Part shown: positions 1,587-61,200 of the stretch, piece by piece
Layout: the number at the start of each line of letters is the position of its first letter
Numbering within the stretch: the first letter of the stretch is position 1
Assembly (NCBI RefSeq): GCF_964355755.1
Contig: NC_092675.1
Coordinates: forward strand, 8,737,812-8,801,811
DNA length: 64,000 nucleotides
Source: Antedon mediterranea
Taxonomy: Eukaryota > Animalia > Echinodermata
Direction: 5' to 3'
Program-made: the position numbers and the translations under genes
Notes under the pieces: model-generated
Database searches by the model: none
What the model was told of the DNA's origin: nothing
Seen by the model: the letters and a program-made list of their open reading frames with translations, nothing else

Positions 1587-2811
1587 TTGTTGTTCAAAGA
1601 CATGTTTGTTGTTGTATGTTGCTGCTGTGGTGACGGTACAAACGTCACTGTACTACGCGGGCGTCCACTTGTGTGCGCGTTTGATTCTTAGCAACAAAGC
1701 GGCCTGAATCTTTTGTACATGCCGCTAATGTGTTATGCTTCATTGTACAGTGTTATTCTTTCCTTTATATTATCTTTTTACGAACCTCAGTATAACTTTT
1801 TAAATTATACTAAACAAAGTTGAATTTACCTTTCAAGTATGTGTTTCTTCAACAGAAGTGGGTGTAAATATCAACGTCATGGTTTCAGCAGCTGCTAATT
1901 TCAATCCTAGAAAATGTTCTATAATAAATGAACAAAAGTATTAGGTTATAGGATATATGTGTTTATAGAGATTTTCACAGTGAATATAAGATTTATATAT
2001 ACTTTGAACCGCAAGTAACCGAACGTCTACAACCATACCATGTTGAAAACACCGGTTCTGGTCCAAACACCGCAGTTAAACAACGTCGGGCCTGGTTAGT
2101 ACTTGGATGGGAGACCGCCTGGGAATACCTGGTGTCGTAGACCTATGTTTAACTTTTTTAAATTATACTAAACAATGTTTATTTTACCTTTCAATTATGT
2201 TTTTATGACAGTAACTATAAGATCTTTCTAAGTTATAATCTTGAACCGCAAGTAACCGAACGTCTACAACCATACCACGTTGAAAACACCGGTTCTCGTC
2301 CGAACACCGCAGTTAAACAACGTCGGGCCTGGTTAGTACTTGGATGGGAGACCGCCTGGGAATACCTGGTGTCGTAGACCTATGTTTAACTTTTTTAAAT
2401 TATACTAAATAAAGTTTATTTTACCTTTCAATTATATTTTCATGACAGTAACTATAAGATCTTTCTAAGTTATAATCTTGAACCGCAAGTAACCGAATGT
2501 CTACAACCGTACCAGGTTGCCTAGCCTGTGAATATCTGTTGTCGTACACCTGTTTTTATCTTTTTAATAATCCTAAAATATAGTCTCCTTTAAGTGTTTC
2601 GATTTTCCAAAAATTTGTTTATACTGTTGATGATAGTATAAGTAAATAAATTCAAACTGTAACCGCAATTAATCGAAAGTTTTTCAACTAAACTGCATTG
2701 AAAACAACGGTTCTCGTCCGATCACTGAAGTTAAACAAGTTGTTGTTCAAAGACATGTTTGTTGTTGTATGTTGCTGCTGTGGTGACGGTACAAACGTCA
2801 CTGGTATACAT

Positions 2812-7300: not shown

Positions 7301-7385
7301 ATTTTGCAAAACTGTTGATACTTTTAAAAAATTATTAAAAACACATTTATTCATTAAGGCATATGGAAATCATGAGGTTTCTTAA
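4317..7385 (+). CDS. LINE ORF2: APE endonuclease plus reverse transcriptase (L2)
   Basis: NARS, SETWL, IYRPP, GDFN, LDLII, SDH; NYRPISNL, LDLSAAFDTVDH, VPQGSVLGP, YADD; LHWLP. The frame is open from 4188 and has no ATG before the APE domain. Confidence 0.95.
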   Translation: MEPVPGHSPPTAKGHSAISTHFSKLKLCVLNARSTQRKASRKGVEQVSGNGETSTKSTEKHRSIEKAHLNFGVLNARSLRNKCDEFVDLVVSYNLDVVAVSETWLRPDDDLVIGDLTPLGYRFVHVPRVDKTGGGVGILSKSSLVVNLKTDVHTYASFEAIHVHITSNSKSLRLVNIYRPPTLSVTEFLNDFEKMLFDFILFSSEIVFCGDFNIHMDNKKNVAADRFKTLLRSFGLQQHINEPTHCSGHCLDLIITRDDLLLSDVKIHPGLSDHFVIFCKFDLKRPTTHKTVRKSRNLKQIDIDKFTNDNKACVSNITDVSVILEDSVESYSDLRAVLDLHAPVQNKTIRQKEAKPWYTDEIRSERKVRRQLERKWMKSKLPKDRQEYCVQRCVVNGLIEKAKTRYYSSLVSDCTGDQKKLFNIVNKLLHHSKSSVLPSSVSDEALAERFSMFFVNKIKSIRDSLENENTGEVITASDKCNISYGLTRSIRFSQFEPASDEEILKIVKNSPSKSCALDPVPTSLIKKCTSAFIPLITHIVNKSLESGSFPESLKVTHVRPTLKKTGLDPEILKNYRPISNLSFLGKIIEKVVSKRILSHVQKHGLLDPYQSAYKAHHSTETALLRVNNDILRGMDDGKLTALVLLDLSAAFDTVDHSVLLNRLSTYIGIEGNALDWCRSYLEKRPQHVCIGDAISKASFLTFSVPQGSVLGPQWFTIYLHPIRDIISKYDLCYHVYADDTQIYISFKPTMKHSDISLELLQHCIYELRVWMKNNFLKLNDEKTEFVLFGSKQQLEKLPPSFIHIGETQIDPARQVRNLGFEMDVSMTMISHISKTISASSFHLRNIRRIRKFINETAAKQLVHAFVTSRLDMGNSLLYGLPQKQLHRLQLIQNTAARVVKKLPRYGHISNTLEILHWLPVRYRIVFKILLFVFKYINGMAPEYISDMLRLYVPGRNLRSSDSLLLHQPKSHHSWGDRAFSVTAPRLWNALPSSIRFCKTVDTFKKLLKTHLFIKAYGNHEVS

Positions 7386-7679
7386 AGTTGTTTAGACTTA
7401 GAATTGTTTTGTATACCTTTTCCTGGCCAGCATTCTCTTTGGGGTGCCTCTGTCTTGGTTGTTGTCTCTGAGCACCCGGTCGTCTGTGGCAAGGCAAATG
7501 TGTATCCTGCTCCTTTGTTTGGTCACCTAGGTAGGGGTCCGGGACCGCGACAGAATGACAACGGATGGGGACCCTCCAAAGAAATTGCATTTTATTTGCC
7601 AGGAATTTGTATGATTTATTTCTTTTTTATTTTTAAATGCGCCTTGAGCACTCTGGAGTGGTATGTGCGCTATAAAAAT

Positions 7680-7700
7680 CTTATTATTATTATTATTATT
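7680..7700 (+). repeat. (TTA)n 3' tail of the L2 element
   Basis: TTATTATTATTATTATTATT directly before the TSD. Confidence 0.9.
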
Positions 7701-13175: not shown

Positions 13176-14762
13176 GTCGTATACCTATGTTTAACTTTTT
13201 TAAATTATACTAAATAAAGTTTATTTTACCTTTCAATTATGTTTTTTGACAGTAACTATAAGATCTTTCTCAGTTATAATCTTGAACCGCAAGTAACCGA
13301 ATGTCTACAACCATACCACGTTGAAAACACCGGTTCTCGTCCGAACACCGCAGCTAAACAACGTCGGGCCTGGTTAGTACTTGGATGGAAGACCGCCTGG
13401 GAATACCTGGTGTCGTAGACCTATGTTTAACTTTTTTAAATTATACTAAACAATGTTTATTTTACCTTTCAATTATGTTTTTTGACAGTAACTATAAGTT
13501 CTTTCTCAGTTATAATCTTGAACCGCAAGTAACCGAATGTCTACAACCGTACCAGGTTGCCTAGCCTGTGAATATCTGTTGTCGTACACCTGTTTTTATC
13601 TTTTTAATAATCCTAAAATATAGTCTCGTTTAAGTGTTTCTATTTTCCAAAAATGTGTTTATACTGTTGATGATAGTATAAGGAAATAAATTCTAACTGT
13701 AACCGCAATTAATCGAAAGTTTTTCAACTAAACTGCATTGAAAACAACGGTTCTCGTCCGATCACTGAAGTTAAACAAGTTGTTGTTCAAAGACATGTTT
13801 GTTGTTGTATGTTGCTGCTGTGGTGACGGTACAAACGTCACTGTACTACGCGGGCGTCCACTTGTGTGCGCGTTTGATTCTTAGCAACAAAGCGGCCTGA
13901 ATCTTTTGTACATGCCGCTATTTGTGTTATGCTTCTTTGTACAGTGTTATTGTTTCCTTTATATTATCTTTTTAAGAACCTCAGTATAACTTTTTAAATT
14001 ATACTAAACAAAGTTGAATTTACCTTTCAAGTATGTGTTTCTTCAACAGAAGTGGGTGTAAATACCAACGTCATGGTTTCAGCAGCTGCTAATTTCAATC
14101 CTAGAAAATGTTCTATAATAAATGAACAAAACTATTAGGTTATAGGATATATATGTTTATAGAGATTTTGACAGTGAATATAAGATGTATATATACTTGA
14201 ACCGCAAGTAACCGAACGTCTACAACCATACCACGTTGAAAACACCGGTTCTCGTCCGAACACCGCAGTTAAACAACGTCGGGCCTGGTTAGTACTTGGA
14301 TGGGAGACCGCCTGGGAATACCTGGTGTCGTAGACCTATGTTTAACTTTTTTAAATTATACTAAACAAAGTTTATTTTACCTTTCAATTATGTTTTTATG
14401 ACAGTAACTATAAGATCTTTCTAAGTTATAATCTTGAACCGCAAGTAACCGAACGTCTACAACCATACCATGTTGAAAACACCGGTTCTCGTCCGAACAC
14501 CGCAGTTAAACAACGTCGGGCCTGGTTAGTACTTGGATGGGAGACCGCCTGGGAATACCTGGTATCGTAGACCTATGTTTAACTTTTTTAAATTATACTA
14601 AATAAAGTTTATTTTACCTTTCAATTATATTTTTATGACAGTAACTATAAGATCTTTCTAAGTTATAATCTTGAACCGCAAGTAACCGAACGTCTACAAC
14701 CATACCACGTTGAAAACACCGGTTCTCCTCCGAACACCGCAGTTAAACAACGTCGGGCCTTG

Positions 14763-14995
14763 GATGTTAGTGTATGGGAACTGAATTTAAGAAAATCAAT
14801 ATTAAAATCTCCACAAGCATAAAAACTTTTTTTTTCTGTGTTGATTACTTCAAATAATAGTGATATGTTTTCATTAAAAGTTTTTATGGATTTTTCTGGT
14901 GGTCGGTATATTACTGAGAAAATATAATTTTTTGGTTTTAATTCTATTTCAATGCAGATATTTTCAGCTTCATTATTAATTAAAGAACTCAAATC
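14763..14995 (-). mobile_element. Remnant duplicate of the 5' end of the 10256-13175 LINE
   Basis: Matches 12943-13175 except for two substitutions and has the identical junction AAATCGTCGTATACCTATG. Confidence 0.92.
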
Positions 14996-23900: not shown

Positions 23901-26383
23901 GTCGGGCCTCGTTAGTACTTGGATGGGAGACCGCCTGGGAATACCTGGTGTCGTAGACCTATGTTTAACTTTTTTAAATTATACTAAACAAAGTTTATTT
24001 TACCTTTCAATTATGTTTTTATGACAGTAACTATAAGATCTTTCTAAGTTATAATCTTGAACCGCAAGTAACCGAACGTCTACAACCATACCACGTTGAA
24101 AACACCGGTTCTCCTCCGAACACCGCAGTTAAACAACGTCGGGCCTGGTTAGTACTTGGATGGGAGACCGCCTGGGAATACCTTGTGTCGTAGACCTATG
24201 TTTAACTTTTTTAAATTATACTAAACAATGTTTATTTTACCTTTCAATTATGTTTTTTGACAGTAACTATAAGATCTTTCTCAGTTATAATCTTGAACCG
24301 CAAGTAACCGAATGTCTACAACCATACCACGTTGAAAACACCGGTTCTCGTCCGAACACCGCAGTTAAACAACGTCGGGCCTGGTTAGTACTTGGATGGG
24401 AGACCGCCTGGGAATACCTGGTGTCGTAGACCTATGTTTAACTTTTTTAAATTATACTAAATAAAGTTTATTTTACATTTCAATTATATTTTTATGACAG
24501 TAACTATAAGATCTTTCTAAGTTATAACCTTGAACCGCAAGTAACAGAATGTCTACAACCGTACCAGGTTGCCTAGCCTGTGAATAACTGTTGTCGTACA
24601 CCTGTTTTTTTCTTTTTAATAATCCTAAAATATAGTCTCGTTTAAGTGTTTCTATTTTCCAAAAATGTGTTTATACTGTTGATGATAGTATAAGTAAATA
24701 AATTCTAAGTGTAACCGCAATTAATCGAAAGTTTTTCAACTAAACTGCATTGAAAACAACGGTTCTCGTCCGATCACTGAAGTTAAACAAGTTGTTGTTC
24801 AAAGACATGTTTGTTGTTGTATGTTGCTGCTGTGGTGACGGTACAAACGTCACTGTACTACGCGGGCGTCCACTTGTGTGCGCGTTTGATTCTTAGCAAC
24901 AAAGCGGCCTGAATCTTTTGTACATGCCGCTATTGTGTTATGCTTCTTTGTACAGTGTTATTGTTTCCTTTATATTATCTTTTTAAGAACCTCAGTATAA
25001 CTTTTTAAATTATACTAAACAAAGTTGAATTTACCTTTCAAGTACTATTAGGTTATAGGATATATGTGTTTATAGAGATTTTGACAGTGAATATAAGATT
25101 TATATATACTTGAACCGCAAGTAACCGAACGTCTACAACCATACCATGTTGAAAACACCGGTTCTCGTCCGAACACCGCAGTTAAACAACGTCGGGCCTG
25201 GTTAGTACTTGGATGGGAGACCGCCTGGGAATACCTGGTGTCGTAGACCTATGTTTAACTTTTTTAAATTATAATAAACAATGTTTATTTTACCTTTCAA
25301 TTATGTTTTTTGACAGCAACTATAAGATCTTTCTCAGTTATAATCTTGAACCGCAAGTAACCGAATGTCTACAACCATACCACGTTGAAAACACCGGTTC
25401 TCGTCCGAACACCGCAGTTAAACAACGTCGGGCCTGGTTAGTACTTGGATGGAAGACCGCCTGGGAATACCTGGTGTCGTAGACCTATGTTTAACTTTTT
25501 TAAATTATACTAAATAAAGTTTATTTTACCTTTCAATTATATTTTTATGACAGTAACTATAAGATCTTTCAAAGTTATAATCTTGAACCGCAAGTAACCG
25601 AATGTCTACAACCGTACCAGGTTGCCTAGCCTGTGAATATCTGTTGTCGTACACCTGTTTTTATCTTTTTAATAATCCTAAAATATAGTCTCGTTTAAGT
25701 GTTTCTATTTTCCAAAAATGTGTTTATACTGTTGATGATAGTATAAGTTAAGTAAATAAATTCAAACTGTAACCGCAATTAATCGAAAGTTTTTCAACTA
25801 AACTGCATTGAAAACAACGGTTCTCGTCCGATCACTGAAGTTAAACAAGTTGTTGTTCAAAGACATGTTTGTTGTTGTATGTTGCTGCTGTGGTGACGGT
25901 ACAAACGTCACTGTACTACGCGGGCGTCCACTTGTGTGCGCGTTTGATTCTTAGCAACAGTGTGTTTTCATAGTTGGTTAAGTATTAAATTTAAATCTCT
26001 AAAAATCACTTTAATCCTTCTAAATTGTAACACTATCTGTAAGAGATATTAACAATTACCTAATACTAGAGCTATACTTTACTGTTTAACTCTGTAAAAA
26101 CAAATATTTAGGAGCATTTTTGGTTGTTTGAAAGCTAGGCCAACTCATGCCTGATTGACTTGCTTTCATAACCATCTACTCTAACCGGGAAGGAGGTAGG
26201 TGTAGGCCTAGCAGTTACCGGCCTAGGCAGTGTTCGATATTTTCAACTGTTATTTATTTATTTATTTATTTATTTTGGATTATTTGGTCTAGGTAGTGTT
26301 GGACAATTGTTATTATTGGTTTGAGTATTGGTTTGACTTTTTTGTATTTTTTTTTTCGCTCAAGTCAATAATACTAGATAGAA

Positions 26384-27244
26384 ATGCCCCCAAAAAAGAA
26401 ATCAGTTCCCAAGGAAGGCAAAGTTTGTGGAGAATGTGGCTCTTGTAGTCAGAATGTTATTGAGGAAGGTCTGCTCTGCAATCTATGCAATCTTTGGTTC
26501 CACAAAGGGTGTCAAAATGTCAGTGATAGCCTCTATCAATTGATTAATGCACATGGTAATAATGACTCGGTACATTGGTATTGTCGATCATGCAATACTA
26601 CGGCAAAAGATATTATGAAGAACCTTTCCAGCATTGCAACAACACAAACTGAGCTAGCAAAGCATATTGAAGCAAATACTGAGAAAATTGATAAGATACT
26701 ATCTAACCAAACAGAAATGTATTTAAAAACTGAAGAAAGACTAGAAAAGAAGTTAATAAATAGCATGGAGGAGAAGTTTAGCGAGCATGAAGATAGAGAA
26801 AAGCGTAAAGCAAATATTATAGTGTATGAAATTGAAGAATCCGATAAAACTGAGTCTAATTTGAGGAAAAAAGATGATTGGGAGAACGTAGCTCAATTTC
26901 TTCATGGACTTGATATACAGCATGTGGATAGTAAAATCAGAACTTTCTTCCGTTTAGGCAAACGAGAACCTACTAAAAGACGTCCTATTAAAATAGTTTT
27001 CTATGATATAAGAGACAAGGAGCTTATACTTAAGAATGCATGGGATAAAAAAATTAAAGGGGTTAGTAGAGACCGAAGCAAGTTAGATCGTGACCGGTTT
27101 AATACGCTGAAAGTCGAGAAAGAGAGAAGAGAGCAAGCTGGTGAGACCAATTTAATGATAAGAAACTACGAGATTGTGAAGGTGCCCTTTCGGACAAGCC
27201 CAAACCACAACCCTCAGGTCAAACAATACCAGGCACAACACTAA
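26384..27244 (+). CDS. CR1 ORF1: PHD finger, coiled coil and RRM-like domain
   Basis: CGEC...CNLCNLWFHKGC...WYCRSC (C4HC3); KRKANIIVYEIEE, RLGK and RPIKI motifs. Confidence 0.92.
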   Translation: MPPKKKSVPKEGKVCGECGSCSQNVIEEGLLCNLCNLWFHKGCQNVSDSLYQLINAHGNNDSVHWYCRSCNTTAKDIMKNLSSIATTQTELAKHIEANTEKIDKILSNQTEMYLKTEERLEKKLINSMEEKFSEHEDREKRKANIIVYEIEESDKTESNLRKKDDWENVAQFLHGLDIQHVDSKIRTFFRLGKREPTKRRPIKIVFYDIRDKELILKNAWDKKIKGVSRDRSKLDRDRFNTLKVEKERREQAGETNLMIRNYEIVKVPFRTSPNHNPQVKQYQAQH

Positions 27245-30188
27245 TAACACAAAGAAAATAAACACAGAAAGTAATTATAATTTAGGAAATAATACTTTTA
27301 ATTTTAATTATCGAAGAAATAACATTATCAACATTGACAGAGATAATCTTTCTTTTTTTTACACTAATTGTGATACATTAACTAACAAAATCGCAGAACT
27401 CCGAATAAGAATAAATCAGCTTAAACCGGATATTATAATCTTAAATGAGATATTACCTAAACATTATCTGTATGAAATTGATGAGAACATTTTTAATTTA
27501 GAAGGTTATAATTTATTTAGTAAACTGGAACATAGAGGAGTCGCGATCCTAGTAAAAGATACATTGACTGTATTTCAGGTTGACATAGGTGGTTTTGATG
27601 AGAATATATTTGTGAATATTAAATTAAATGATATTAATGTTTTAATTGGTTGTGTTTATCGCAGTCCAAGTAGTCACGCGGACAAATTTGAGGATTTAAA
27701 AGATATTTTGGTTGCAGCAGACAAGTACAGGGCTGATCATATGATTGTTGCTGGCGATTTTAATTTTAAAGGGATAAACTGGAGTAGCAAAGGGTTATCA
27801 CAAAATGTGAACCAAAAATTTACCGATTTAATCGATGATTTAATGTGGCATCAACATGTAGACTGTCCGACAAGACATCGTACTGGAGAAGAATCTAATA
27901 TACTAGATTTAGTACTTTCAAGAGAAGAGTTTGATGTCTGTGATCTTATTAGTAGTGCACCATTGGGAAAGAGTGACCATGTTGTTTTAACCTTTAATCT
28001 TGCTTTAAGTTTTATAGAAAAAGAAAATGTCACTCCTACAAGAAATTACTACAAAGCCAACTACGAAGCTATTAGAACTAAAATAAAAGAATCGAAACTA
28101 AATATTGATATGTATGAACTTGATGGTGTTTCTATTGCTAATTCTCTCTATTCCCTGTTAGATTTCTGTATTTTACAGTATGTTCCTTTAAGGTCTAAAA
28201 CTAAAAGGTATAAGAAGCAGTGGATGAACGTCGAAACAGTGTCTATAGTTAAACAGAAACATAAAGCATGGAATAGATATCAGAGTAGAAGAACACCGGA
28301 AAGATGGAATGCTTATATTAAAGTTAGAAATGAGACAAATAAGGCAATAAAAAAAGCGAAGAAAAGTTTTGAATGCAAGTTGGCATCCGAGATAAAAGTG
28401 AATCCTAAGAGTTTCTGGAAATATTATAAGGAGAAAACTGGCAAAAAGACGGGCATTTCTGCATTAAAAGACGAGAGAGGAGAACTGATTGTAGATGATA
28501 GACAAAAAGCTGCACTCTTAAACCAAGCATTTGCAACAGTTTTTACTAAAGAAAATATTTCTGACATTCCCGTGCTTAAACTTAACCTTGATCATGAAGT
28601 CGAACCTTTGTATACTGTTGCATTTCCGGAGAATGAAATTCGAAAGCACCTATTAGCATTAGACATTTGTAAGTCTCCAGGACCAGATGGTGTGCACTCT
28701 CGACTTTTAAAAGAAACGGCAAATGAAATTAGTCCAATTCTCAGCACTTTATTTTCCAAGCTTTTACATGAGGGAACTATTCCTGAACAATGGAGGCAAG
28801 CTAATGTTTCACCAATCTATAAGAAAGGCTGTAAAACTAATCCTCTAAACTATAGGCCAGTGAGTTTAACGTCAATACTATGTAAAACCATGGAGACATT
28901 CATCAAGAATGAAATATCGAAACATATGGAAGATAATAAACTATTTTGTAACGAACAACATGGGTTTCGCAAGGGAAGATCCTGCAACACGCAACTGCTT
29001 GAGGCCACTGAGAAATGGTCTTCAATGATAGATGAAGGACACTCTGTCGATATCTTGTACTGTGATTTTCAAAAAGCTTTTGACTCTGTTCCACATGAAA
29101 GACTTCTCCATAAAATGCATACATATGGTATTCGTGGTGAATTGTTGAAATGGACTAAAATATACTTGTCAAATCGTGTCCAGCGAGTGGTGGTAAATGG
29201 CGAAGTTTCGGATTGGATATCGGTCCAGAGTGGTATTCCTCAAGGGAGTGTATATGGTGTAATCTGCTTTACAATATTTATCAACGATCTGCCTCAATTA
29301 GTTAAGTCACCTCTTTTTTTGTTTGCTGATGATTCAAAGACATACAAAGCTGTTGATTCAGACATAGATGCTCTTGATTTTCAGGCGGACATTGATAAGA
29401 TGTATAAATGGTCAGTAAAGTGGCAGTTGCCCTTTAATATTAATAAATGTAAGGTTATGCATCTCGGTAAAAAATCCTTGAACACAACATACTTTATGGG
29501 AACAGGTTCAGATAGAATTCAGTTAGGAGTTGTAACTCAGATGAGAGATCTTGGTGTTTTAGTTGATAATAAATTGAATTTTCATGATCATATCGTTGAA
29601 GTTGTTAAAAAGGCTAACTCTAGACTTGGTTTAATTAAGAGAACCTTTGAATATTTAGACAGTCATTTAGTGTCTATCCTTTATAAATCAATGGTTAGAC
29701 CGATTTTAGAATATTCTAGTACGGCTTGTCTTCCTCAGTTTGTTGGTGATTCTATTCTCTTAGAAAAAGTTCAGCAAAGAGCCACAAAACTTGCTGTGGA
29801 AATTAAAACTCAACCATATAGTGACCGAATGAAATTTATGAAACTGCCATCATTAGCATTTCGAAGAAAGAGGTCTTGCTGCTTACAGATTTTTAGAATG
29901 ATACAAAAGTATGATAATGTTAATCCGGGTGTCTTTTTTGAATTAGCACCATCTACTGTAACTAGAGGCCACAATTTTAAAATTAAAAAAGTTCATAGTA
30001 AATCGAAACACAGACAGAAATTCTTTTCAATATCTGCAGTAAATGATTGGAATAGTTTGCCATATCATATAGTAAATGCATCCTCTATAAATAATTTTAA
30101 AACCCATCTTGAAACACACTGGAAAACCCACAACCTAAAGTTTGAGCCATATAACCAAGATGTTCAAAGAGGGACTCACAAACCTTAA
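27180..30188 (+). CDS. CR1 ORF2: APE endonuclease plus reverse transcriptase
   Basis: The frame opens at 27180, upstream of the track start at 27564, and includes YTNCDTLTNK and PDIIILNE. Further motifs: YRSP, GDFN, SDH, NYRPVSLTS, DFQKAFD, FADD, LEKVQQRATK and TRGHNFK. Confidence 0.92.
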   Translation, partial: RCPFGQAQTTTLRSNNTRHNTNNTKKINTESNYNLGNNTFNFNYRRNNIINIDRDNLSFFYTNCDTLTNKIAELRIRINQLKPDIIILNEILPKHYLYEIDENIFNLEGYNLFSKLEHRGVAILVKDTLTVFQVDIGGFDENIFVNIKLNDINVLIGCVYRSPSSHADKFEDLKDILVAADKYRADHMIVAGDFNFKGINWSSKGLSQNVNQKFTDLIDDLMWHQHVDCPTRHRTGEESNILDLVLSREEFDVCDLISSAPLGKSDHVVLTFNLALSFIEKENVTPTRNYYKANYEAIRTKIKESKLNIDMYELDGVSIANSLYSLLDFCILQYVPLRSKTKRYKKQWMNVETVSIVKQKHKAWNRYQSRRTPERWNAYIKVRNETNKAIKKAKKSFECKLASEIKVNPKSFWKYYKEKTGKKTGISALKDERGELIVDDRQKAALLNQAFATVFTKENISDIPVLKLNLDHEVEPLYTVAFPENEIRKHLLALDICKSPGPDGVHSRLLKETANEISPILSTLFSKLLHEGTIPEQWRQANVSPIYKKGCKTNPLNYRPVSLTSILCKTMETFIKNEISKHMEDNKLFCNEQHGFRKGRSCNTQLLEATEKWSSMIDEGHSVDILYCDFQKAFDSVPHERLLHKMHTYGIRGELLKWTKIYLSNRVQRVVVNGEVSDWISVQSGIPQGSVYGVICFTIFINDLPQLVKSPLFLFADDSKTYKAVDSDIDALDFQADIDKMYKWSVKWQLPFNINKCKVMHLGKKSLNTTYFMGTGSDRIQLGVVTQMRDLGVLVDNKLNFHDHIVEVVKKANSRLGLIKRTFEYLDSHLVSILYKSMVRPILEYSSTACLPQFVGDSILLEKVQQRATKLAVEIKTQPYSDRMKFMKLPSLAFRRKRSCCLQIFRMIQKYDNVNPGVFFELAPSTVTRGHNFKIKKVHSKSKHRQKFFSISAVNDWNSLPYHIVNASSINNFKTHLETHWKTHNLKFEPYNQDVQRGTHKP

Positions 30189-33100
30189 CAGGTTTATAGT
30201 CTAAAGGTCAAGGTAAATCAAGGTAAAACAACGCGGCCTGAATCTTTTGTACATGCCGCTATTGTGTTATGCTTCTTTGTACAGTGTTATTGTTTCCTTT
30301 ATATTATCTTTTTAAGAACCTCAGTATAACTTTTTAAATTATACTAAACAAAGTTGAATTTACCTTTCAAGTATGTGTTTCTTCAACAGAAGTGGGTGTA
30401 AATACCAACGTCATGGTTTCAGCAGCTGCTAATTTCAATCCTAGAAAATGTTCTATAATAAATGAACAAAACTATTAGGTTATAGGATATATATGTTTAT
30501 AGAGATTTTGACAGTGAATATAAGATTTATATATACTTGAACCGCAAGTAACCGAACGTCTACAATCATACCACGTTGAAAACACCGGTTCTCGTCCGAA
30601 CACCGTAGTTAAACAACGTCGGGCCTCGTTAGTACTTGGATGGGAGACCGCCTGGGAATACCTGGTGTCGTAGACCTATGTTTAACTTTTTTAAATTATA
30701 CTAAACAAAGTTTATTTTACCTTTCAATTATGTTTTTATGACATTAACTATAAGATCTTTCTAAGTTATAATCTTGAACCGCAAGTAACCGAACGTCTAC
30801 AACCATACCACGTTGAAAACACCGGTTCTCCTCCGAACACCGCAGTTAAACAACGTCGGGCCTGGTTAGTACTTGGATGGGAGACCGCCTGGGAATACCT
30901 TGTGTCGTAGACCTATGTTTAACTTTTTTAAATTATACTAAACAATGTTTATTTTACCTTTCAATTATGTTTTTTGACAGTAACTATAAGATCTTTCTCA
31001 GTTATAATCTTGAAACGCAAGTAACCGAATGTCTACAACCATACCACGTTGAAAACACCGGTTCTCGTCGGAACACCGCAGTTAAACAACGTCGGGCCTG
31101 GTTAGTACTTGGATGGGAGACCGCCTGGGAATACCTGGTGTCGTAGACCTATGTTTAACTTTTTTAAATTATACTAAATAAAGTTTATTTTACCTTTCAA
31201 TTATATTTTTATGACAGTAACTATAAGATCTTTCTAAGTTATAATCTTGAACCGCAAGTAACCGAACGTCTACAACCATACCACGTTGAAAACACCGGTT
31301 CTCCTCCGATAACCGCAGTTAAACAACGTCGGGCCTGGTTAGTACTTGGATGGGAGACCGCCTGGGAATACCTGGTGTCGTAGACCTATGTTTAACTTTT
31401 TATAAATTATACTAAACAATGTTTATTTTACCTTTCAATTATGTTTTTTGACAGTAACTATAAGATCTTTCTCAGTTATAATCTTGAACCGCAAGTAAAC
31501 GAATGTCTACAACCATACCACGTTAAAAACACCGGTTCTCGTCCGAACACCGCAGTTAAACAACGTCGGGCCTCGTTAGTACTTGGATGGGAGAACACCA
31601 GGGAATACGTGGTGTCGTAGACCTATGTTTAACTTTTTTAAATTATACTAAATAAAGTTTATTTTACCTTTCAATTATATTTTTATGACAGTAACTATAA
31701 GATCTTTCAAAGTTATAATCTTGAACCGCAAGTAACCGAATGTCTACAACCGTACCAGGTTGCCTAGCCTGTGAATATCTGTTGTCGTACACCTGTTTTT
31801 ATCTTTTTAATAATCCTAAAATATAGTCTCGTTTAAGTGTTTCTATTTTCCAAAAATGTGTTTATACTGTTGATGATAGTATAAGTTAAGTAAATAAATT
31901 CAAACTGTAACCGCAATTAATCGAAAGTTTTTCAACTAAACTGCATTGAAAACAACGGTTCTCGTCCGATCACTGAAGTTAAACAAGTTGTTGTTCAAAG
32001 ACATGTTTGTTGTTGTATGTTGCTGCTGTGGTGACGGTACAAACGTCACTGTACTACGCGGGCGTCCACTTGTGTGCGCGTTTGATTCTTAGCAACAACG
32101 CGGCCTGAATCTTTTGTACATGCCGCTATTGTGTTATGCTTCTTTGTACAGTGTTATTGTTTCCTTTATATTATCTTTTTAAGAACCTCAGTATAACTTT
32201 TTAAATTATACTAAACAAAGTTGAATTTACCTTTCAAGTATGTGTTTTTTCAACAGAAGTGGGTGTAAATACCAACGTCATGGTTTCAGCAGCTGCTAAT
32301 TTCAATCCTAGAAAATGTTCTATAATAAATGAACAAAACTATTAGGTTATAGGATATATATGTTTATTGAGATTTTGACAGTGAATATAAGATTTATATA
32401 TACTTGAACCGCAAGTAACCGAACGTCTACAATCATACCACGTTGAAAACACCGGTTCTCGTCCGAACACCGCAGTTAAACAACGTCGGCCTCGTTAGTA
32501 CTTGGATGGGAGACCGCCTGGGAATACCTGGTGTCGTAGACCTATGTTTAACTTTTTTAAATTATACTAAAAAAAGTTTATTTTACCTTTCAATTATGTT
32601 TTTATGACAGTAACCTATAAGATCTTTCTAAGTTATAATCTTGAACCGCAAGTAACCGAACGTCTACAACCATACCACGTTGAAAACACCGGTTCTCCTC
32701 CGAACACCGCAGTTAAACAACGTCGGGCCTGGTTAGTACTTGGATGGGAGACCGCCTGGGAATACCTTGTGTCGTAGACCTATGTTTAACTTTTTTAAAT
32801 TATACTAAACAATGTTTATTTTACCTTTCAATTATGTTTTTTGACAGTAACTATAAGATCTTTCTCAGTTATAATCTTGAACCGCAAGTAACCGAATGTC
32901 TACAACCATACCACGTTGAAAACACCGGTTCTCGTCCGAACACCGCAGTTAAACAACGTCGGGCCTGGTTAGTACTTGGATGGGAGACCGCCTGGGAATA
33001 CCTGGTGTCGTAGACCTATGTTTAACTTTTTTAAATTATACTAAATAAAGTTTATTTTACCTTTCAATTATATTTTTATGACAGTAACTATAAGATCTTT

Positions 33101-51100: not shown

Positions 51101-51652
51101 GGTTCTCGTCCGAACACCGCAGTTAAACAACGTCGGGCCTCGTTAGTACTTGGATGGGAGACCGCCTGGGAATACCTGGTGTCGTAGACCTATGTTTAAC
51201 TTTTTTAAATTATACTAAACAAAGTTTATTTTACCTTTCAATTATGTTTTTATGACAGTAACTATAAGATCTTTCTAAGTTATAATCTTGAACCGCAAGT
51301 AACCGAACGTCTACAACCATACCACGTTGAAAACACCGGTTCTCGTCCGAACACCGCAGTTAAACAACGTCGGGCCTGGTTAGTACTTGGATGGGAGACC
51401 GCCTGGGAATGCCTGGTGTCGTAGACCTATGTTTAACTTTTTTAAATTATACTAAACAATGTTTATTTTACCTTTCAATTATGTTTTTTGACAGTAACTA
51501 TAAGATCTTTCTCAGTTATAATCTTGAACCGCAAGTAACCGAATGTCTACAACCATACCACGTTGAAAACACCGGTTCTCGTCCGAACACCGCAGTTAAA
51601 CAACGTTGGGCCTGGTTAGTACTTGGATGGGAGACCGCCTGGGAATACCTGG

Positions 51653-51664
51653 CACGTATCCGCG
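51653..51664 (+). repeat. Left terminal inverted repeat CACGTATCCGCG
   Basis: Exact reverse complement of 58224-58235. Confidence 0.97.
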
Positions 51665-53364
51665 AAGTATGCGAAGCGCAGACAGAGTCTGTAATCTCTT
51701 TGAATTGCGCCCTCTATTGAGCACGTGACTGACATTCAGTTGACATTTAAAATCCGTTACTTCCGTTTCTCTCCCCACGTTGTTTTCGTCACTTGAGGTT
51801 GGCATAACAATAAAATAACGAATTTGTTAGGCTTGTCATCAACACTTTAACTTATAAACATTCTAAATAACATTTAAAAAATACTATGAACACATTTTAA
51901 AGCAAAAATAATATTGTTTGAATATTGCTGTTTTTTTTGGTACAAAATAACATAATTTTTGTATGTTATTTAATTTTTTATAATACCAATTATTAGAAGT
52001 TTTTTGAAAATGGACTATGGTCTTATGGGTAATATGGATAGTTTCACTATGGATTGCACATGGTCATAACCGGGAAATAATTGAATATACGGAATGGGAA
52101 CCGGGCAAAATGTGAACTTTTACTGATATTTACATGGAATATGAGCATTTACCAATTTGTATAAACATTCATTTTTTCAAGAAGAAACTTGATATTGCTT
52201 ATATCCGACACAATGAAGATGGCAATTGAGTATTTATAATTATAATTATCGGTTTGTCAAATTAAAACGCCATTTTTTAAAGATTGCGCAATCAACAGAA
52301 TACTGCCGACCTCATTAAATAGTCGCATGTCTTATCTGTAAATACATACTTATCAGCGAGGAAATTGTTACCACACATTCTAAAAGTATTTTCTGTAATA
52401 GAGTGTTTTTTTTATAAACTAAAATATGTTTACGATTGTGTTTGATGCAAGTATATTATATATTTTTAAAAATGCAATTGTACTTACCCCTAATAAAACA
52501 AATGGAACGATCCAATTTACACTATGTGATTGGTTGTTGTGGATTATACCATTGTCAAATAGGTAAGTAATTATACAACATTGTTATTGTTAATCAAATA
52601 TATTGAATGGCATGTAATCCAGTTTTTAAAAATAATTAAACATAATTTATTGATTTATAGACTGTTTTATAAGAATTGTTAACACTATTAAAATATAATA
52701 TAATATAACAAAATAACAGAGAACAAAATGATTGATATAGGTCATCAAATAAATCAAAGAATTTGATCGATGACATTGACGACATTTATTTCTAATGAGG
52801 TATTTGTTATCAGTAACTGATAATCTAAGATTGGAAAAATATTTGAATAGTTAGTTGTACATTCAGCTTTCAACAGAGATAGGAAATCTGTAAACTAATT
52901 CACATTACTTTCATATTTGGACAAGAAAGAAAGAATGTTCTTAAAGTTCCTACTTAAATCCAGTAACGTAATACAGTACTTAGTAGTAGATGTATTGTCC
53001 TCAAAAAACATGAAAAATAAAGATTAATAATTACTTATAAAATGGCAAAATAAATTGTTAAATTCAACCAAAAACCTATTGGCTGGCAGCCAATTTGACT
53101 ATTTTTTGCTTTAAATTACAGTTTTTTAGGTAAATACATTTTCTTTCGATCCAATTTTTGGTCAAAGTGGATACTATTAGGTGACATTCAAATGGCATAT
53201 TCAACAAAAAATGTTTTAATAATTATTTTTTTCAGGAAGACAATACATCTTTAATAATTTGTTGTTGGGCACAAAGATTGCACATGAGATTTTTTGTTTT
53301 CTGTATTATTACAAATTTTATACTCTATCCATTAAAAAAACATTATTAAGATCAACTTCAAAAC

Positions 53365-53400
53365 CTGTGAAGATACAACAATCTGTGAAGATACAACAGT
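53365..53400. repeat. 18-bp tandem duplication in the transposase 3' UTR
   Basis: CTGTGAAGATACAACAAT CTGTGAAGATACAACAGT. Confidence 0.8.
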
Positions 53401-53409
53401 GCCAGTACA

Positions 53410-56400
53410 TTATTCCTCAATTTTCCTTTTATTGGCCTTCTTTTCAGGAATCGCCTTTAGAGTTGATGGACTGCACGAAACCCAGTGATTTTTCACCACT
53501 GACAGCAAAATGGTTAATCTGTCTGTTGTTCTGCCACGGTAGTCACGTTGGATGCCATTCAATCTTGCGTGCATTGACTCACCACCTTGTTCGCCATGGA
53601 ATCCTAATCCCACCCCCCATTTCTTGATCCATGGTATGATATGCTCGCACAATATGTGAAATTTTGGAGGCTGCGTTTCATGGAATGTGGCGAAAATCTC
53701 TTTATAGATTGATATATTTTGTTCTGTAGGTAACAAAAGCAAAGTTGTCATTTATATTCTGAATGCTTAATATTTATTTAATAATAAATATGCAATTATT
53801 TAAAATTTAACAAAGATTTCTGTACTGTACATACGCAACTGATCAATTTCAGCATTCCCGAATTGTTCTGCTGAATTGTATAATCTGTGGCAGGCTCCAA
53901 ATGCATTAAATAACTTTGTGTAGGCCACAGCTACATCTTCAGCCTCCTTCAAAAGAGTTGGACAAATGGCTTGGACAGTGTGGGTTATTCCATCCATTAA
54001 ATATTTAATATTTGTTGTCTGAAATGATTTAATTTATTGTTTATTCAAAATGCAATTATTAAAAAAAAACTGAAACAGCCCATGCCACATTTGTAAGTCA
54101 TCAACGTCAGCTTTATACCTACCATGTACAATTTATGGATATGGTTCCCAACAAAACACTGTCCCCAGTATGCCTGCCTTGTTATGCCCATTTTGATCAA
54201 GCGTTTGTCCAACTCCTCACAAATGGGACCCGTTCTCTTCAAAAAAGTTGGAGACGGTGGCGTGGCTTCAATATGTTCATTCTACAAAATAATCATGACA
54301 TAATTCACATAGTTTTCTCATTCAATTTGCTTTGTTCAATAATAACAATAAAATATTTCTTATACTTACATGAGCATTTAATTTCTCCCTTTTCTGATTA
54401 ATCTGTGTAATCAGTTCAATTGCACAATCATCATTTCCATGACCAAGTAAATTAAAAGCATTAAAATAATCAGTCATTTGGCCTATCTCCTGTTCCAGAT
54501 TTTCCTTTTCATTTAAATGGTAACGCAAACATTCATTATGTTCCACTAACTGAAAAATAGGGTTAAAAGGGTCATTGTAAGTAACATGGATGGAATGCTC
54601 TGTATACAGGGTACCAACAAATGAAATTATAATGTACCTTAATGTACTCTTTACGAGCAATGCTTGCATTGATGCCGTCAGCTTGTTGGGCCATCTTTTT
54701 ATCGAGTGTGTGGCATGCATCCTCTAAACTTTGATAATGCTTCAACCCAAGGCCTAAGCTAATATGCAGTCCAGGTGGACAAACCTAATTGTAATGAAAC
54801 ATTCTTTATTTAAAACTGATGATGGTATATTTATTCAAACATTAATCATACAAGGCAGAAATTATATATATAATTTTTCTGATATAAAAAGCATCAACTT
54901 ATCAACTCTTATCAAACAAACAGTTTGATCAATCTATGAGCTTTACAGTACTTACATGATCAATGTCAATGTCAAGTATTGGTGAACTTATTACGTTGTT
55001 GTGAAACTTCGCATTTTTCAACATGCTTCCATTGCTTGCAAAACTTTCCAAATCTTTCTTCATAGATTCTAGAGATCTTTTTGTTAAATCCACTTTACCC
55101 TTCGAACTCAGGCAATATAAGCAAAAGTGTCGTCCTATAAAAAATACATTTTTTTAGTATTAAACTATTTATGAGATATTGCCTAATATAATACTAGGTT
55201 CCAGTGTATTAGAATTACAGTACTTACCACTTGCTCCGGATAATCCGTAAACACGGCATTCATATTCGTAATCCCCGAAAGCAAACAATTCAATTTCTTT
55301 TCCACTGAAATAAAGGAAGAGGTATATATTATGTACAGAATTATGAAACATAAAAAATACATACTTACCACTTTGCTTCAGACAATCCATAAACACGACA
55401 TTTGTATTTATAGTACTGTAGCTGAATGCAAATAATTCAATTTCTTCTCCACTGAAATAAAATAAAAATAAATCAAAACATATAGTGAAATCATAAATAG
55501 TAAATACTTTTATAAATTGTCAGAACTGTTATGATATAAACTACTTACTTCCACACCAATGTCTTGAGGTCTTCAACTTGGTTCCTAATTCTCTCCATTC
55601 CTGTTTTTAAATTGTAGGTGCAATCGCCTGCTTCCCATATCAAAATTGTAACTGTATTTTTCAAAGAATTGGGCCGGTCAACATTGCCAATTTGCAGCAT
55701 AAATTTGTAAGTTCCTCCTCCTTTGTCTCCGCCTAGTTTAATCCATATTTTATTTTCTGGTATCAAACCATTGTGCCAAGTAAGCATATCAAGACTAAAA
55801 GCAATAATAAAACAATATTGTGTTCATATTTCAAATGCTTTGAAAAAAAAATCTAATGAAAAAAAGAAAGAACATTTGATAAACGTGTGTATTTATACCT
55901 TTGTAGCTCATCTAACAATTGTGTTACTTTCACTCTTAAGTTTTTCACTACAACTAATGGCACATCTGTGAGCAACAACTCATCTGTCTTGGTATCTTTC
56001 ACTAGCAATGGCACATACTCAGATGTCAGATTGTCGCCTATGATCTCATCAACTTGACAGCCAATACTGGCTTCGCATTCACAAACGACCCGGTACTTTG
56101 CTAACCATCTAAAAATAGAAGAAATAATAGTTTGGAACGGATGCTTATTTTAAATGAAGTAGATTGAATAATAGGTTGAAATAATAATTTGGTTTTATTT
56201 CAGAATAAATAAATGTCTAAATAATAAAATATACCTTTTTAATAATCTTGTTCTAGAGCCACTTAGTCCAAGGTGAGTTCTCATTGAGAGTATATCTCCT
56301 TGGGGCATCCTAATGGGTGTTTGAAGCATAGTCTTTAATTCTTCATTTAATTGGGAAAATTCGTGTCTGTGTTGTTCTAATTCAGCATCTTCTCCACTTA

Positions 56401-57588
56401 TCAGTTTTCTGAATTGTTGAATCTGTGAAAGCAAAGGTATCAGTTGTTGAAATTGACGATTGATTCAGAAGTTCCCTTATAAAACATTAACAATCAACTT
56501 TTGTACCTGGTGTGTCCTCCTGTCTTTGGTTTTTTTTGATGCTGTATTTGACGACACTCTAACTGCAGGTATCTTCATATACCTAACCGTCTTCAAAACA
56601 AAAAAGAAAATATGAATAAATTTAACAGTATAGTATGTACACGGTCAATTGTAATTATGAGAAAATAAAGAAATGTATTGTACCTGCCCCTTTGATCTGA
56701 AGGTAGCTATACCATTTTCTGCTGTTTTGGCAGACAGTAGTTGGTGCCCTAAAACTTCGACATTCGCTTGCACAGGGCTTGTGGAAGGTTGTTTTGCATA
56801 AGTGTGTTCTTTTAAGACACACACATGTGTATTACACTGTCGACATTCAAACTGACACTGACATTTCTTACATTTGACAGCAACAGACATATAACATTGA
56901 ATGAAAAGATCAGGTACAGCAGTGACAGACAAGTAGTGTACATTAGTTAAACAGGTAGGACAAATCATGAACTCGACATCAACAAAACAAGTATTAACAC
57001 ATGCTTTACAAGCAACATGATGACATGGTAACTCGACAGGACATTCACACAATACATTACAGATGCAACACATGAATGGTCTTAGAGAACCGATAATGTT
57101 GTAAGAATCGGGAATAGTTGTTAGTGTTGTGTTTATTGGTTCAAAATGCTTGGTAACTGATGAGGTATGAGCCATTTTTCTTTGACACTCTGCATTTCCA
57201 CATCCCCTCTTCTTTTTCTTTGGCCTTCCACCTATGTGATAACAATTAACAATGGCTTTAAAAGTATTTGCTGTACATTAAAAATATAAACAAAATAAAT
57301 TTTCTCTACCAGTATTAACTAACCTTTTCGTAGTTTATCTTCACAGATGTTACATCCTATTCGTTTATGTGGCGGCCAGTCCTTGCAGGAAATTTGTTGT
57401 TTTTGGACAACACACTTGATGTAGCAGAGATTACAGAATGACGATGGAGTTACGCTACTATCTTCATCTCTGCTAACATTAAGCTGTTCCCAATAGTCTG
57501 CCACTTTCTTTGACCGAGAGCCGGCTTTGTTTAATTTAATACCACACACTCTGCAGAGTGTACACAGTATTTGTTTGTGGTTTTCCAT
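53410..57588 (-). CDS. Chapaev DDE transposase with RAG1-like N-terminus (Chapa zinc finger plus RING), 13 coding exons, 926 aa by hand splicing
   Basis: GT-AG exons, all phase-compatible: 57588-57324, 57231-56684, 56590-56507, 56422-56235, 56108-55899, 55794-55549, 55304-55228, 55134-54956, 54784-54638, 54549-54370, 54281-54123, 54018-53835, 53723-53410 (2781 nt). Motifs: H-x7-CRVCG, FCNLC, WPPH-x4-CNIC, GGRPKK, C3HC4 RING, LGGDKGGG (D1), FGDYEY (D2, 69 aa later), CLYC, PPGLH, KFHILCEH and GEQGGESMH (E). Confidence 0.88.
55369..55451 (-). other. Tandem duplicate of the D2-bearing transposase exon (alternative exon or pseudoexon)
   Basis: Same acceptor (TTATTTCAG|TGGA) and donor (AGTG|GTAAGTA) as exon 55304-55228. 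It is 83 nt versus 77 nt and reads GEEIELFAFSYSTINTNVVFMDCLKQS. Confidence 0.85.
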
Positions 57589-58058
57589 CAATCTGCCAAA
57601 AAAAAAAAAAATTATGATTACTCTATTCTAATGTACTTATCTGGTATACAGGTACAGGTCTGGTATGTCTATACAAAGCACATAGTAGGCCTACTTATGT
57701 TGATTAATACTATGCCTAGGCCTAAAATACTAATTATAGGCTTATTAAATAGCAGTAAAACATTCTAACATAATTATAAAAAAATAATTATTTCCCAAGT
57801 CTTACTAGGATATTTTGTCTCTATTTTAATACAAATTTAATTTAAACCATTTCATTTATTACCAAAAACTTCGTGTAAAGAAATATAAGCAGATACTTAA
57901 GTACCTAGATTAGTTTTGCGGACTTCGTCATTGACGAAATCTAGGCCTATCACTAAATAAAATGATCAAACTTTTCCAACATTATAAAGTTGAGATAAAT
58001 TATAAATTTTACACGTATGTGTAAATCTTGTTTAATATATTTTAAAAATATAACTTAC

Positions 58059-58160
58059 GTTGAGTTTGTTGATTTACTTTGTCTTAAAACAGGGAAACAA
58101 ACAGGGGGTACTATTGATATTTATACGAATCGGCGACGAAATTTCAAAACAAACCAGTGA
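58059..58160 (-). other. Putative non-coding first exon of the transposase gene (5' boundary uncertain)
   Basis: Donor CTCAAC|GTAAGTT at 58059/58058, and a strong poly-pyrimidine acceptor at 57593-57594, a few nt before the ATG. Confidence 0.5.
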
Positions 58161-58223
58161 AGCGTATCGCGATACGCGCTAACTGCCAAACCTGAGGGCG
58201 CTGTCGCTGAATGCGTCCGTTAA

Positions 58224-58235
58224 CGCGGATACGTG
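58224..58235 (-). repeat. Right terminal inverted repeat
   Basis: CGCGGATACGTG, followed by the TSD and the rest of the 5S gene. Confidence 0.97.
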
Positions 58236-61200
58236 CTGGTGTCGTAGACCTATGTTGAACTTTTTTAAATTATACTAAACAATGTTTATTTTACCTTTCA
58301 ATTATGTTTTTATGACAGTAACTATAAGATCTTTCAAAGTTATAATCTTGAACCGCAAGTAACCGAATGTCTACAACCGTACCAGGTTGCCTAGCCTGTG
58401 AATATCTGTTGTCGTACACCTGTTTTTATCTTTTTAATAATCCTAAAATATAGTCTCGTTTAAGTGTTTCTATTTTCCAAAAATGTGTTTATACTGTTGA
58501 TGATAGTATAAGTAAATAAATTCAAACTGTAACCGCAATTAATCGAAAGTTTTTCAACTAAACTGCATTGAAAACAACGGTTCTCGTCCGATCACTGAAG
58601 TTAAACAAGTTGTTGTTCAAAGACATGTTTGTTGTTGTATGTTGCTGCTGTGGTGACGGTACAAACGTCACTGTACTACGCGGGCGTCCACTTGTGTGCG
58701 CGTTTGATTCTTAGCAACAAAGCGGCCTGAATCTTTTGTACATGCCGCTATTGTGTTATGCTTCTTTGTACAGTGTTATTGTTTCTTTTATATTATCTTT
58801 TTAAGAACCTCAGTATAACTTTTTAAATTATACTAAACAAAGTTGAATTTACCTTTCAAGTATGTGTTTCTTCAACAGAAGTGGGTGTAAATACCAACGT
58901 CATGGTTTCAGCAGCTGCTAATTTCAATCCTAGAAAATGTTCTATAATAAATGAACAAAACTATTAGGTTATAGGATATATATGTTTATAGAGATTTTGA
59001 CAGTGAATATAAGATTTATATATACTTGAACCGCAAGTAACCGAACGTCTACAATCATACCACGTTGAAAACACCGGTTCTCGTCCGAACACCGCAGTTA
59101 AACAACGTCGGGCCTGGTTAGTACTTGGATGGGAGACCGCCTGGGAATACCTGGTGTCGTAGACCTATGTTTAACTTTTTTAAATTATACTAAACAATGT
59201 TTATTTTACCTTTCAATTATGTTTTTTGACAGTAACTATAAGATCTTTCTCAGTTATAATCTTGAACCGCAAGTAACCGAATTTCTACAACCATACCACG
59301 TTGAAAACACCGGTTCTCGTCCGAACACCGCAGTTAAACAACGTCGGGCCTGGTTAGTACTTGGATGGGAGACCGCCTGGGAATACCTGGTGTCGTAGAC
59401 CTATGTTTAACTTTTTTAAATTATACTAAACAATGTTTATTTTACCTTTCAATTATGTTTTTTGACAGTAACTATAAGATCTTTCTCAGTTATAATCTTG
59501 AACCGCAAGTAACCGAATTTCTACAACCATACCACGTTGAAAACACCGGTTCTCGTCCGAACACCGCAGTTAAACAACGTCGGGCCTGGTTAGTACTTGG
59601 ATGGGAGACCGCCTGGGAATACCTGGTGTCGTAGACCTATGTTTAACTTTTTTAAATTATACTAAATAAAGTTTATTTTACCTTTCAATTATATTTTTAT
59701 GACAGTAACTATAAGATCTTTCAAAGTTATAACCTTGAACCGCAAGTAACCGAATGTCTACAACCGTACCAGGTTGAAAACACCGGTTCTCGTCCGAACA
59801 CCGCAGTTAAACAACGTCGGGCCTTGTTAGTACTTGGATGGGAGACCGCCTGGGAATACCTGGTGTCTTAGACCTATGTTTAACTTTTTTAAATTATACT
59901 AAATAAAGTTTATTTTACCTTTCAATTATATTTTTATGACAGTAACTATAAGATCTTTCTCAGTTATAATCTTGAACCGCAAATAACCGAACGTCTACAA
60001 CCATACCACGTTGAAAACACCGGTTCTCCTCCGAACACCGCAGTTAAACAACGTCGGGCCTGGTTAGTACTTGGATGGGAGACCACCTGGGAATACCTGG
60101 TGTCGTAGACCTATGTTTAACTTTTTTAAATTATACTAAACAATGTTTATTTTACCTTTCAATTATGTTTTTTGACAGTAACTATAAGATCTTTCTCAGT
60201 TATAATCTTGAACCGCAAGTAACCGAACGTATACAACCATACCACGTTGAAAACACCGGTTCTCGTCCGAACACCGCAGTTAAACAACGTCGGGCCTGGT
60301 TAGTACTTGAATGGGAGACCGCCTGGGAATACCTGGTGTCGTAGACCTATGTTTAACTTTTTTAAATTATACTAAACAATGTTTATTTTACCTTTCAATT
60401 ATGTTTTTTGACAGTAACTATAAGATCTTTCTCAGTTATAATCTTGAACCGCAAGTAACCGAATGTCTACAACCATACCAAGTTGAAAACACCGTTTCTC
60501 GTCCAAACTCGTTAAACAACGTCGGGCCTGGTTAGTACTTGGATGGGAGACCGCCTGGGAATACCTGGTGTCGTAGACCTATGTTTAACTTTTTTAAATT
60601 ATACTAAACAATGTTTATTTTACCTTTCAATTATGTTTTTATGACAGTAACTATAAGATCTTTCTCAGTTATAATCTTGAACCGCAAGTAACCGAACGTC
60701 TACAACCATACCACGTTGAAAACGCCGGTTCTCGTCCGAACACCGCAGTTAAACAACGTCGGGCCTGGTTAGTACTTGGATGGGAGACCGCCTGGGAATA
60801 CCTGGTGTCGTAGACCTATGTGTAACTTTTTTAAATTATACTAAATAAAGTTTATTTTACCTTTCAATTATATTTTTATGACAGTAACTATAAGATCTTT
60901 CTAAGTTATAATCTTGAACCGCAAGTAACCGAATGTCTACAACCGTACCAGGTTGCCTAGCCTGTGAATATCTGTTGTCGTACACCTGTTTTTATCTTTT
61001 TAATAATCCTAAAATATAGTCTCGTTTAAGTGTTTCGATTTTCCAAAAATGTGTTTATACTGTTGATGATAGTATAAGTAAATAAATTCAAACTGTAACC
61101 GCAATTAATCGAAAGTTTTTCAACTAAACTGCATTGAAAACAACGGTTCTCGTCCGATCACTGAAGTTAAACAAGTTTTTGTTCAAAGACATGTTTGTTG

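Follow-up and report, generated by a model that had tools for sequence, protein, structure and literature searches.

An apparently intact, transcribed RING-type Chapaev transposon inside a 5S rRNA gene of Antedon mediterranea

Our analysis of 64,000 nt of the Antedon mediterranea genome (contig NC_092675.1, positions 8,737,812 to 8,801,811; this whole stretch is called the window below, and all positions are given in its own numbering) shows a 6,583 bp DNA transposon of the Chapaev group, on the minus strand at 51653–58235, that interrupts one gene of a 5S rDNA array. The account that we favour, with modest confidence, is that this is an intact and transcribed RING-type Chapaev whose 975 amino acid (aa) transposase is predicted to have the RAG1 fold and likely still moves the element, and that it landed in the 5S gene by chance. 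An earlier note, made from the sequence alone, had described a young, possibly active Chapaev with RAG1-like domain order and a 926 aa protein. Much of that description stands; the protein fitted by the RNA is longer, and both its 49-residue insert and a nested 263 bp repeat resembling a miniature inverted-repeat transposable element (MITE) were missing from the note.

The boundaries of the element were set independently, by the loss of alignment to the array unit: six stretches of the window lack array-unit coverage, and one of them is exactly 51653–58235, the sole copy of the element that the array alignment finds in the window. At these same points lie 12 bp perfect terminal inverted repeats (TIRs) of the form CAC..GTG (19 of the first 40 bases of the two ends match) and, on both flanks, the bases CTGG, which comparison with intact 5S copies identifies as a 4 bp duplication of the target site (TSD). 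The agreement of array breakpoints, TIR and duplication at the same points is far beyond chance. Since the broken 5S gene begins at 51545 (Rfam RF00001), the duplicated bases are 5S nt 105–108, in agreement with the earlier placement. The features of the insertion are as follows.

51545..51652, plus strand: 5' part of the 5S rRNA gene, nt 1–108, with the left CTGG at 51649–51652 (Rfam RF00001 match and junction)
51653..58235, minus strand: whole Chapaev transposon, 6,583 bp (no array-unit cover; TIR and TSD)
51653..51664, unstranded: 12 bp TIR at the 3' end of the element, beginning CAC on the plus strand
58224..58235, unstranded: 12 bp TIR at the 5' end of the element, ending GTG on the plus strand
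58236..58250, plus strand: right CTGG (58236–58239) and 5S nt 109–119

Chapaev transposons are recognized by CAC..GTG ends, a 3- to 4-bp TSD and, in the transposase, the motifs C(2)C, LH and H(4)H (PMC4079192). All of these, and the Chapa and RING domains besides, are found in the Antedon element, so its identification as a Chapaev holds. Its duplication is the 4 bp CTGG and not the 3 bp TWA of Chapaev3 (PMC4079192), and the 4 bp duplication together with a single gene makes it a RING-type Chapaev. This assignment to the RING-type cut-and-paste Chapaevs, made by published hallmarks rather than against a Repbase entry, is almost certainly correct; the family may already be catalogued in Repbase. 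Two Chapaev subgroups have been described in which a Chapa domain is followed by a RING, an arrangement "similar to RAG1", with cores only distantly related to other Transibs (PMC4411706, Kapitonov and Koonin 2015), and EnSpm, Mirage, Chapaev and Transib have been grouped as CMCT (PMC12730594); N-RAG-TP is an N-terminus-only element (PMC8355894). The RAG1-like architecture noted earlier is thus a published hallmark of the RING-bearing subgroups (PMC4411706). With RING-bearing Chapaevs of the CMC/CMCT clade the Antedon element shares CAC..GTG ends, the 4 bp TSD, Chapa followed by RING, the DDE core motifs and a single gene; it is set apart from them by a 49 aa insert that stems from an exon-intron duplication kept in the message, by the MITE nested in it and by a long branch.

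Four public runs (X1, X5, X8 and X9, with two organism codes) were mapped on the element. Thirteen minus-strand GT-AG coding exons can be joined, as had been proposed, into a stop-free 926 aa protein, but in this model a degenerate tandem copy of exon 7 (55305–55451) has to be removed within a 244 nt intron. Exon 7 and part of an intron are tandemly duplicated with a spacing of 147 nt (96 of 128 aligned bases alike), and the first copy has lost the second catalytic Asp motif and taken two indels, +5 and +1, whose sum brings the frame back. Run X9 contains one 3,100 nt contig that maps piecewise to exons 13, 6, 2 and 1, which means that the element is transcribed and spliced (X9 is taken as RNA because of this spliced contig alone). 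In this contig the span from exon 6 to exon 2 is 482 nt, as every model predicts, and that from exon 13 to exon 6 is 1,073 nt, the length given by the 975 aa model, versus 926 nt for the 926 aa model, 1,009 nt if both copies were spliced separately and 932 nt for the first copy alone; only a 224 nt exon at 55228–55451 explains it. The X9 depth in 18 bins deviates from the 975 aa model by a sum of 1.6, compared with 20.6 for the 926 aa model and 9.9 and 19.9 for the others. The mRNA therefore fits a 975 aa product with a 49-residue insert, the 147 nt duplication staying in the message; the RNA check that the earlier note had called for gives a splicing pattern with 49 additional codons, and the reading frame nevertheless remains free of stops. 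DNA contigs of X1, X5 and X8, from two organism codes, also span the duplication. The read-through frame that is used has no stops, against two and four in the other frames; a stop-free frame arises by chance in 3.8% of shuffles of the 40 non-homologous codons and in 13% of 63 nt windows of real introns, which suggests that its openness may reflect selection. The X9 contig carries 204 nt upstream of the acceptor of the first coding exon, which implies one or more non-coding 5' exons. The exons are these.

58059..58200, minus strand: likely non-coding first exon, donor 58058, start approximate (boundaries estimated from the 204 unplaced X9 nt, bin depths and donor motif)
within 57600–57820, minus strand: probable second non-coding exon of about 65 nt (from the 204 unplaced X9 nt and bin depths)
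57324..57592, minus strand: exon 1 of the coding region, with its acceptor at 57592 and ATG at 57588; aa 1–88 form the Chapa/NZD-like zinc finger
56684..57231, minus strand: exon 2, with the basic GGRPKKKKR (aa 89–97), RING (about aa 143–182) and second Cys/His cluster
56507..56590, minus strand: exon 3
56235..56422, minus strand: exon 4
55899..56108, minus strand: exon 5
55549..55794, minus strand: exon 6, with the first catalytic Asp, D455; DUF1280
55228..55451, minus strand: exon 7 in its transcribed form of 224 nt, made up of the degenerate duplicate 55305–55451 (49 extra codons without catalytic motif) and the true exon with D574
54956..55134, minus strand: exon 8, with C593xxC596
54638..54784, minus strand: exon 9, with the L654-H655 motif
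54370..54549, minus strand: exon 10, helical hairpin
54123..54281, minus strand: exon 11
53835..54018, minus strand: exon 12
53410..53723, minus strand: exon 13, with H894xxxxH899, catalytic E920 and the stop

The richness in introns noted earlier is not a peculiarity of this element. Of 63 exon breakpoints, taken from 37 of 80 related loci, 55 lie within 3 residues of a window intron (about 9% would by chance), and 7 of the 12 window intron positions are matched by breakpoints of relatives; the introns are ancestral to the family.

The predicted protein has the Chapa finger, GGRPKKKKR, RING, second Cys/His cluster, D/D/E residues and CxxC..HxxxxH in the order claimed for it, which is that of RAG1. 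The Chapa exon by itself matches Pfam PF12560 with E=0.0028, below the cut-off, with its cysteines aligned, and the family profile matches the solved N-terminal finger of RAG1 (NZD, 21wb) with E=3.9e-10 and mouse RAG1 aa 101–490 with E=7e-11. RING chains match aa 143–186 (best E=0.00096, phmmer), and the predicted fold there resembles the RAG1 dimerization domain 1rmd with Z 9.4. In an alignment of 99 proteins picked by length from about 170 retrieved homologues, the catalytic residues are present in 98 rows (D455), 98 rows (D574) and 78 rows (E920, where 19 rows are gapped); C593/C596, L654/H655 and H894/H899 are kept across the alignment, and in the family profile D574 and E920 align with the catalytic motifs of RAG1. 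In the Antedon element a GGRPR-like motif at the start of the core is degenerate. An AlphaFold2 model has a mean predicted local distance difference test score (pLDDT) of 86, mostly above 90 in the core, with the insert as a low-confidence loop. The structural comparison suggested earlier yields the same fold for all three reference groups: the predicted core gives Z 29.3 with RAG1, 24.8 with BbRAG1L and 24.7 with HzTransib, beside 11.3 with the P element, and Foldseek agrees. A control prediction for the insert-free sister protein P0004 (mean pLDDT 89.5) has the same core elements.

The nearest relatives are unnamed echinoderm proteins with 33–41% identity. In a 23-row tree, built from unnamed homologues alone (with neither RAG1L nor Transib as root and no named Repbase Chapaev entry), the element pairs (95/97) with a sister family from its own species, within an echinoderm clade (96/96), on a long branch (1.02 versus 0.54 for the sister family). 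Two related loci are complete-looking transposons, L047:285-4729 and L022:1728-6253, with 13 bp and 10 bp CAC..GTG ends; their duplications, AGTG and GGAT, are 4 bp and not the 5 bp that, in other copies, would have told against the earlier note's reading. These two are the ones with a TIR of at least 10 bp and a 4 bp TSD among 30 scanned loci (of 80); several others have a TIR without a TSD.

The claim of youth is supported by the annotated copies. The 975 aa model is letter for letter the RefSeq Antedon mediterranea protein P0001; XP_071952536.1 and XP_071955410.1, on two contigs, are identical to it and XP_071946486.1, on another contig, differs at 1 of 975 residues, so that these three near-identical entries on different contigs point to recent movement. 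Every annotated recent copy includes the 49 aa insert. At exactly 58235 a contig of X5 passes from the element into 30 letters unlike the window's flank, and one of X1 stops at just this base, as expected where several flanks branch; this hints at several polymorphic insertion sites. Eighteen differences in X5, X8 and X9 (taken from 40 of 114 listed rows, those in the MITE and the 3' region being left out) comprise 4 intronic, 6 synonymous and 8 non-synonymous changes, none at a catalytic residue, beside an expected synonymous share of 20.5% without transition correction. The X1 contig that alone covers the left part of the element joins 239 other letters at 51680, 27 bp inside the end, and may represent a copy whose terminus is lost or interrupted. 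Organisms C and D (X10 and X11) contain 21% and 14% of the element's words, which may come from a close relative or from horizontal transfer.

By analogy with RAG1 and Transib, a dimer of the 975 aa protein, with no RAG2 partner, would bind the CAC ends, and the element would be cut out, probably by nick and hairpin steps like those of RAG1; the excised element would then be joined to target DNA with a 4-base stagger, leaving the CTGG duplication. The 49 extra residues would loop out of a β-hairpin before D574 and be tolerated there.

Whether the 975 aa form is the working enzyme is the point on which the favoured account is most exposed. We consider this somewhat more likely than not, because all recent annotated copies carry the insert, the frame is restored and stop-free, and skipping the duplicate needs a 244 nt intron, longer than any of the 12 others (84–171 nt). 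The hairpin at the insert site has 10 residues in 87 of 98 homologues and 14–17 (4–7 extra) in the other 11, so the site appears to tolerate length change. Several observations weigh against the favoured account. None of the 98 homologues has the insert, which lies 11 residues before D574 and is in part hydrophobic, intron-derived sequence, and a gapped alignment would by itself make the model loop it out. The spliced contig comes from organism B, whereas organism A is the one whose DNA matches best; rare isoforms are lost from contigs, and a 926 aa mRNA could thus have been missed; and the window's own 5S junction is absent from the contigs of X1, X5, X8 and X9. Related families in the same organism (P0004, 41–44% identical, and an X1 contig about 94% alike) could act in trans. 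The absence of the insert from the homologues, its closeness to D574 and the presence of sister families would fit an alternative in which the insert cripples the 975 aa product, the duplicate is a splice brake, and a rare 926 aa isoform or a sister family in trans has moved the recent copies, an explanation that we regard as a real but lesser possibility. Skipping would use the intact and strong inner acceptor at 55304 and yield a protein typical of the family; on the other hand, the sole spliced contig is unbranched and matches only the 975 aa form, the required intron is exceptionally long, and an open read-through frame has survived although its rough odds are 1 in 25 for lacking a stop, multiplied by 1 in 3 for the frame. 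Transcription and the near-identical copies are indirect signs of activity; the "possibly active" of the earlier note is nevertheless less secure than the 926 aa model made it seem, because the observed mRNA has 49 extra residues next to the second catalytic Asp.

The place of the insertion and the resemblance to RAG1 invite two further explanations. The family might home to a fixed site in 5S rRNA genes, as Dada-5S does; target-specific DNA transposons of small RNA genes do exist, Dada-5S and Pokey being specific to rRNA genes (PMC8869645), the single copy in view is inside 5S coding sequence, and the X5 contig breaks off after 30 letters of its differing flank, as expected for a repeated flank or an empty allele. 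Against this, the element is in only 1 of the 109 5S matches that Rfam gives in the window, the X5 right flank is unlike the window's (opposite orientation or another 5S position would also fit), the relatives' duplications differ from CTGG and from one another, and none of the 80 related loci has a 5S match by blastn, nor any of the 20 of them scanned with Rfam, a weak test given that these loci are short and distant. Like Dada-5S and Pokey the Antedon element is a DNA transposon inside a multicopy rRNA gene; it differs from them in its unrelated transposase and in being known here from a single 5S copy, with one other individual showing a different flank. Because the array has taken up five other insertions and 5S genes make up about 29% of its DNA, landing inside one needs no targeting, and we think it very probable that this 5S gene was hit by chance; homing is very improbable, and so, to the same degree, is its bolder form, in which a living, single-protein, fixed-site RAG1-fold transposase, its N-terminus fully of the RAG1 type (Chapa finger and RING), would be the first target-specific member of the Chapaev/Transib/RAG assemblage with the duplicated exon as a splice switch. 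That we are dealing with a RAG1L/ProtoRAG or Transib whose RAG2 has been lost is extremely unlikely and already largely refuted. RAG1 is the top structural match, slightly above Transib, and with RAG1/RAG1L of ProtoRAG and TransibSU (PDB 6oep, 6b40, 21wb, 1rmd) the element shares the predicted core fold and the order of NZD-like finger, basic stretch, RING, zinc finger and core. However, its core identity by structure is 14–17% to RAG1 and BbRAG1L, versus >30% for TransibSU (PMC4411706); the RAG1 core scores just 3–4 bits per stretch with the family profile, BbRAG1L has E=0.038 and no Transib chain is among the matches; and all 23 homologues of one set (A1) match DUF1280, the RAG1 core family being listed for none. 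Its 4 bp TSD, absence of a RAG2L and 12 bp TIR without a heptamer-spacer-nonamer layout further separate it from RAG1/RAG1L. Transib (HzTransib, PDB 6pqx) is likewise a single-protein RAG1-fold transposase with CAC ends, yet it has a 5 bp TSD (PMC8355894), is described as lacking Chapa and RING (PMC4411706, PMC8355894), and is 9–11% identical in the core. The supposed relationship to the RAG lineage is therefore retained in the fold, as that of a distant cousin and not of a member of the RAG1L line. The absence of RAG2 noted earlier also holds: in the 1.75 kb beyond the stop, including the 263 bp MITE, no wholly contained stop-free stretch exceeds 67 aa, and a 134 aa frame overlapping the stop and two short frames have no Pfam match.

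A RING-type Chapaev that is intact, expressed and recently copied would be a good reagent and a candidate for a first transposition assay; in the literature searched, no Chapaev assay is evident by title (Repbase Reports and most subscription journals lay outside its scope). With it, the roles of the Chapa finger and the RING could be studied in a transposase free of RAG2, as could the question whether Chapaev, like RAG1, makes its cuts by way of hairpins. For Chapa and the RAG1 NZD a common fold is predicted, and according to a recent preprint the function of Chapa is untested in any Chapaev system (bioRxiv 10.64898/2026.01.24.700457, 2026). The correction to 975 aa has a practical side here, for an assay of the 926 aa protein would test a form that is not in the sole RNA contig. 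Judged by titles and the opening lines of abstracts, the literature on Chapaev with 5S, on target-specific DNA transposons in 5S and on Antedon transposons does not mention this element.

Two further features lie within the element.

52988..53250, unstranded: nested 263 bp MITE-like host repeat with 12 bp perfect inverted ends and no clear TSD
52072..52562, plus strand: possible exon of a spliced antisense non-coding RNA, with an AG|GTAAGT donor at 52562/52563 (X9 contig and depth; a hint only)

The MITE-like repeat, which has TTAA on one side only, exceeds the element body in depth more than 1,000-fold in X5, X1 and X8 and about 600-fold in X9 (depth is no copy number). Both it and the diverged exon 7 duplication are common to the runs of the two organisms, so this Chapaev family has a history. 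At the 3' end of the element an X9 contig departs from the DNA at 52560 with 30 further letters, X9 depth is zero at 52738–52958, and no minus-strand acceptor was found around 52072–52562; a possible antisense RNA would converge here on the transposase gene. A second protein gene on the plus strand was rejected, since the longest open reading frame (ORF) in a hypothetical spliced antisense form reaches 169 aa (with 1 of 8 candidate acceptors), its main part has no Pfam match, and it would be broken by a 25 nt deletion in X8.

The interrupted 5S gene presumably retains its internal promoter region, and from there polymerase III could read on into the element, for about 238 nt until the first T4 (51545–51783). 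The array holds five other insertions, three of them with ORFs like those of long interspersed nuclear elements (LINEs). Two full-length-looking LINEs lie in spacers at 2804–7700 (559 and 1,065 aa) and 25960–30226 (288 and 1,002 aa). A minus-strand retrotransposon without long terminal repeats, with an 885 aa endonuclease/reverse transcriptase frame, is at the 3' end of a 5S gene (10256–13175); we take it that this could belong to a 5S-specific, Mutsu-like LINE lineage. A 235 bp remnant (14761–14995) has the same junction, which is probably due to duplication within the array, and an 883 bp insertion with a T-rich end (37–919) lies inside a 5S gene near nt 50.

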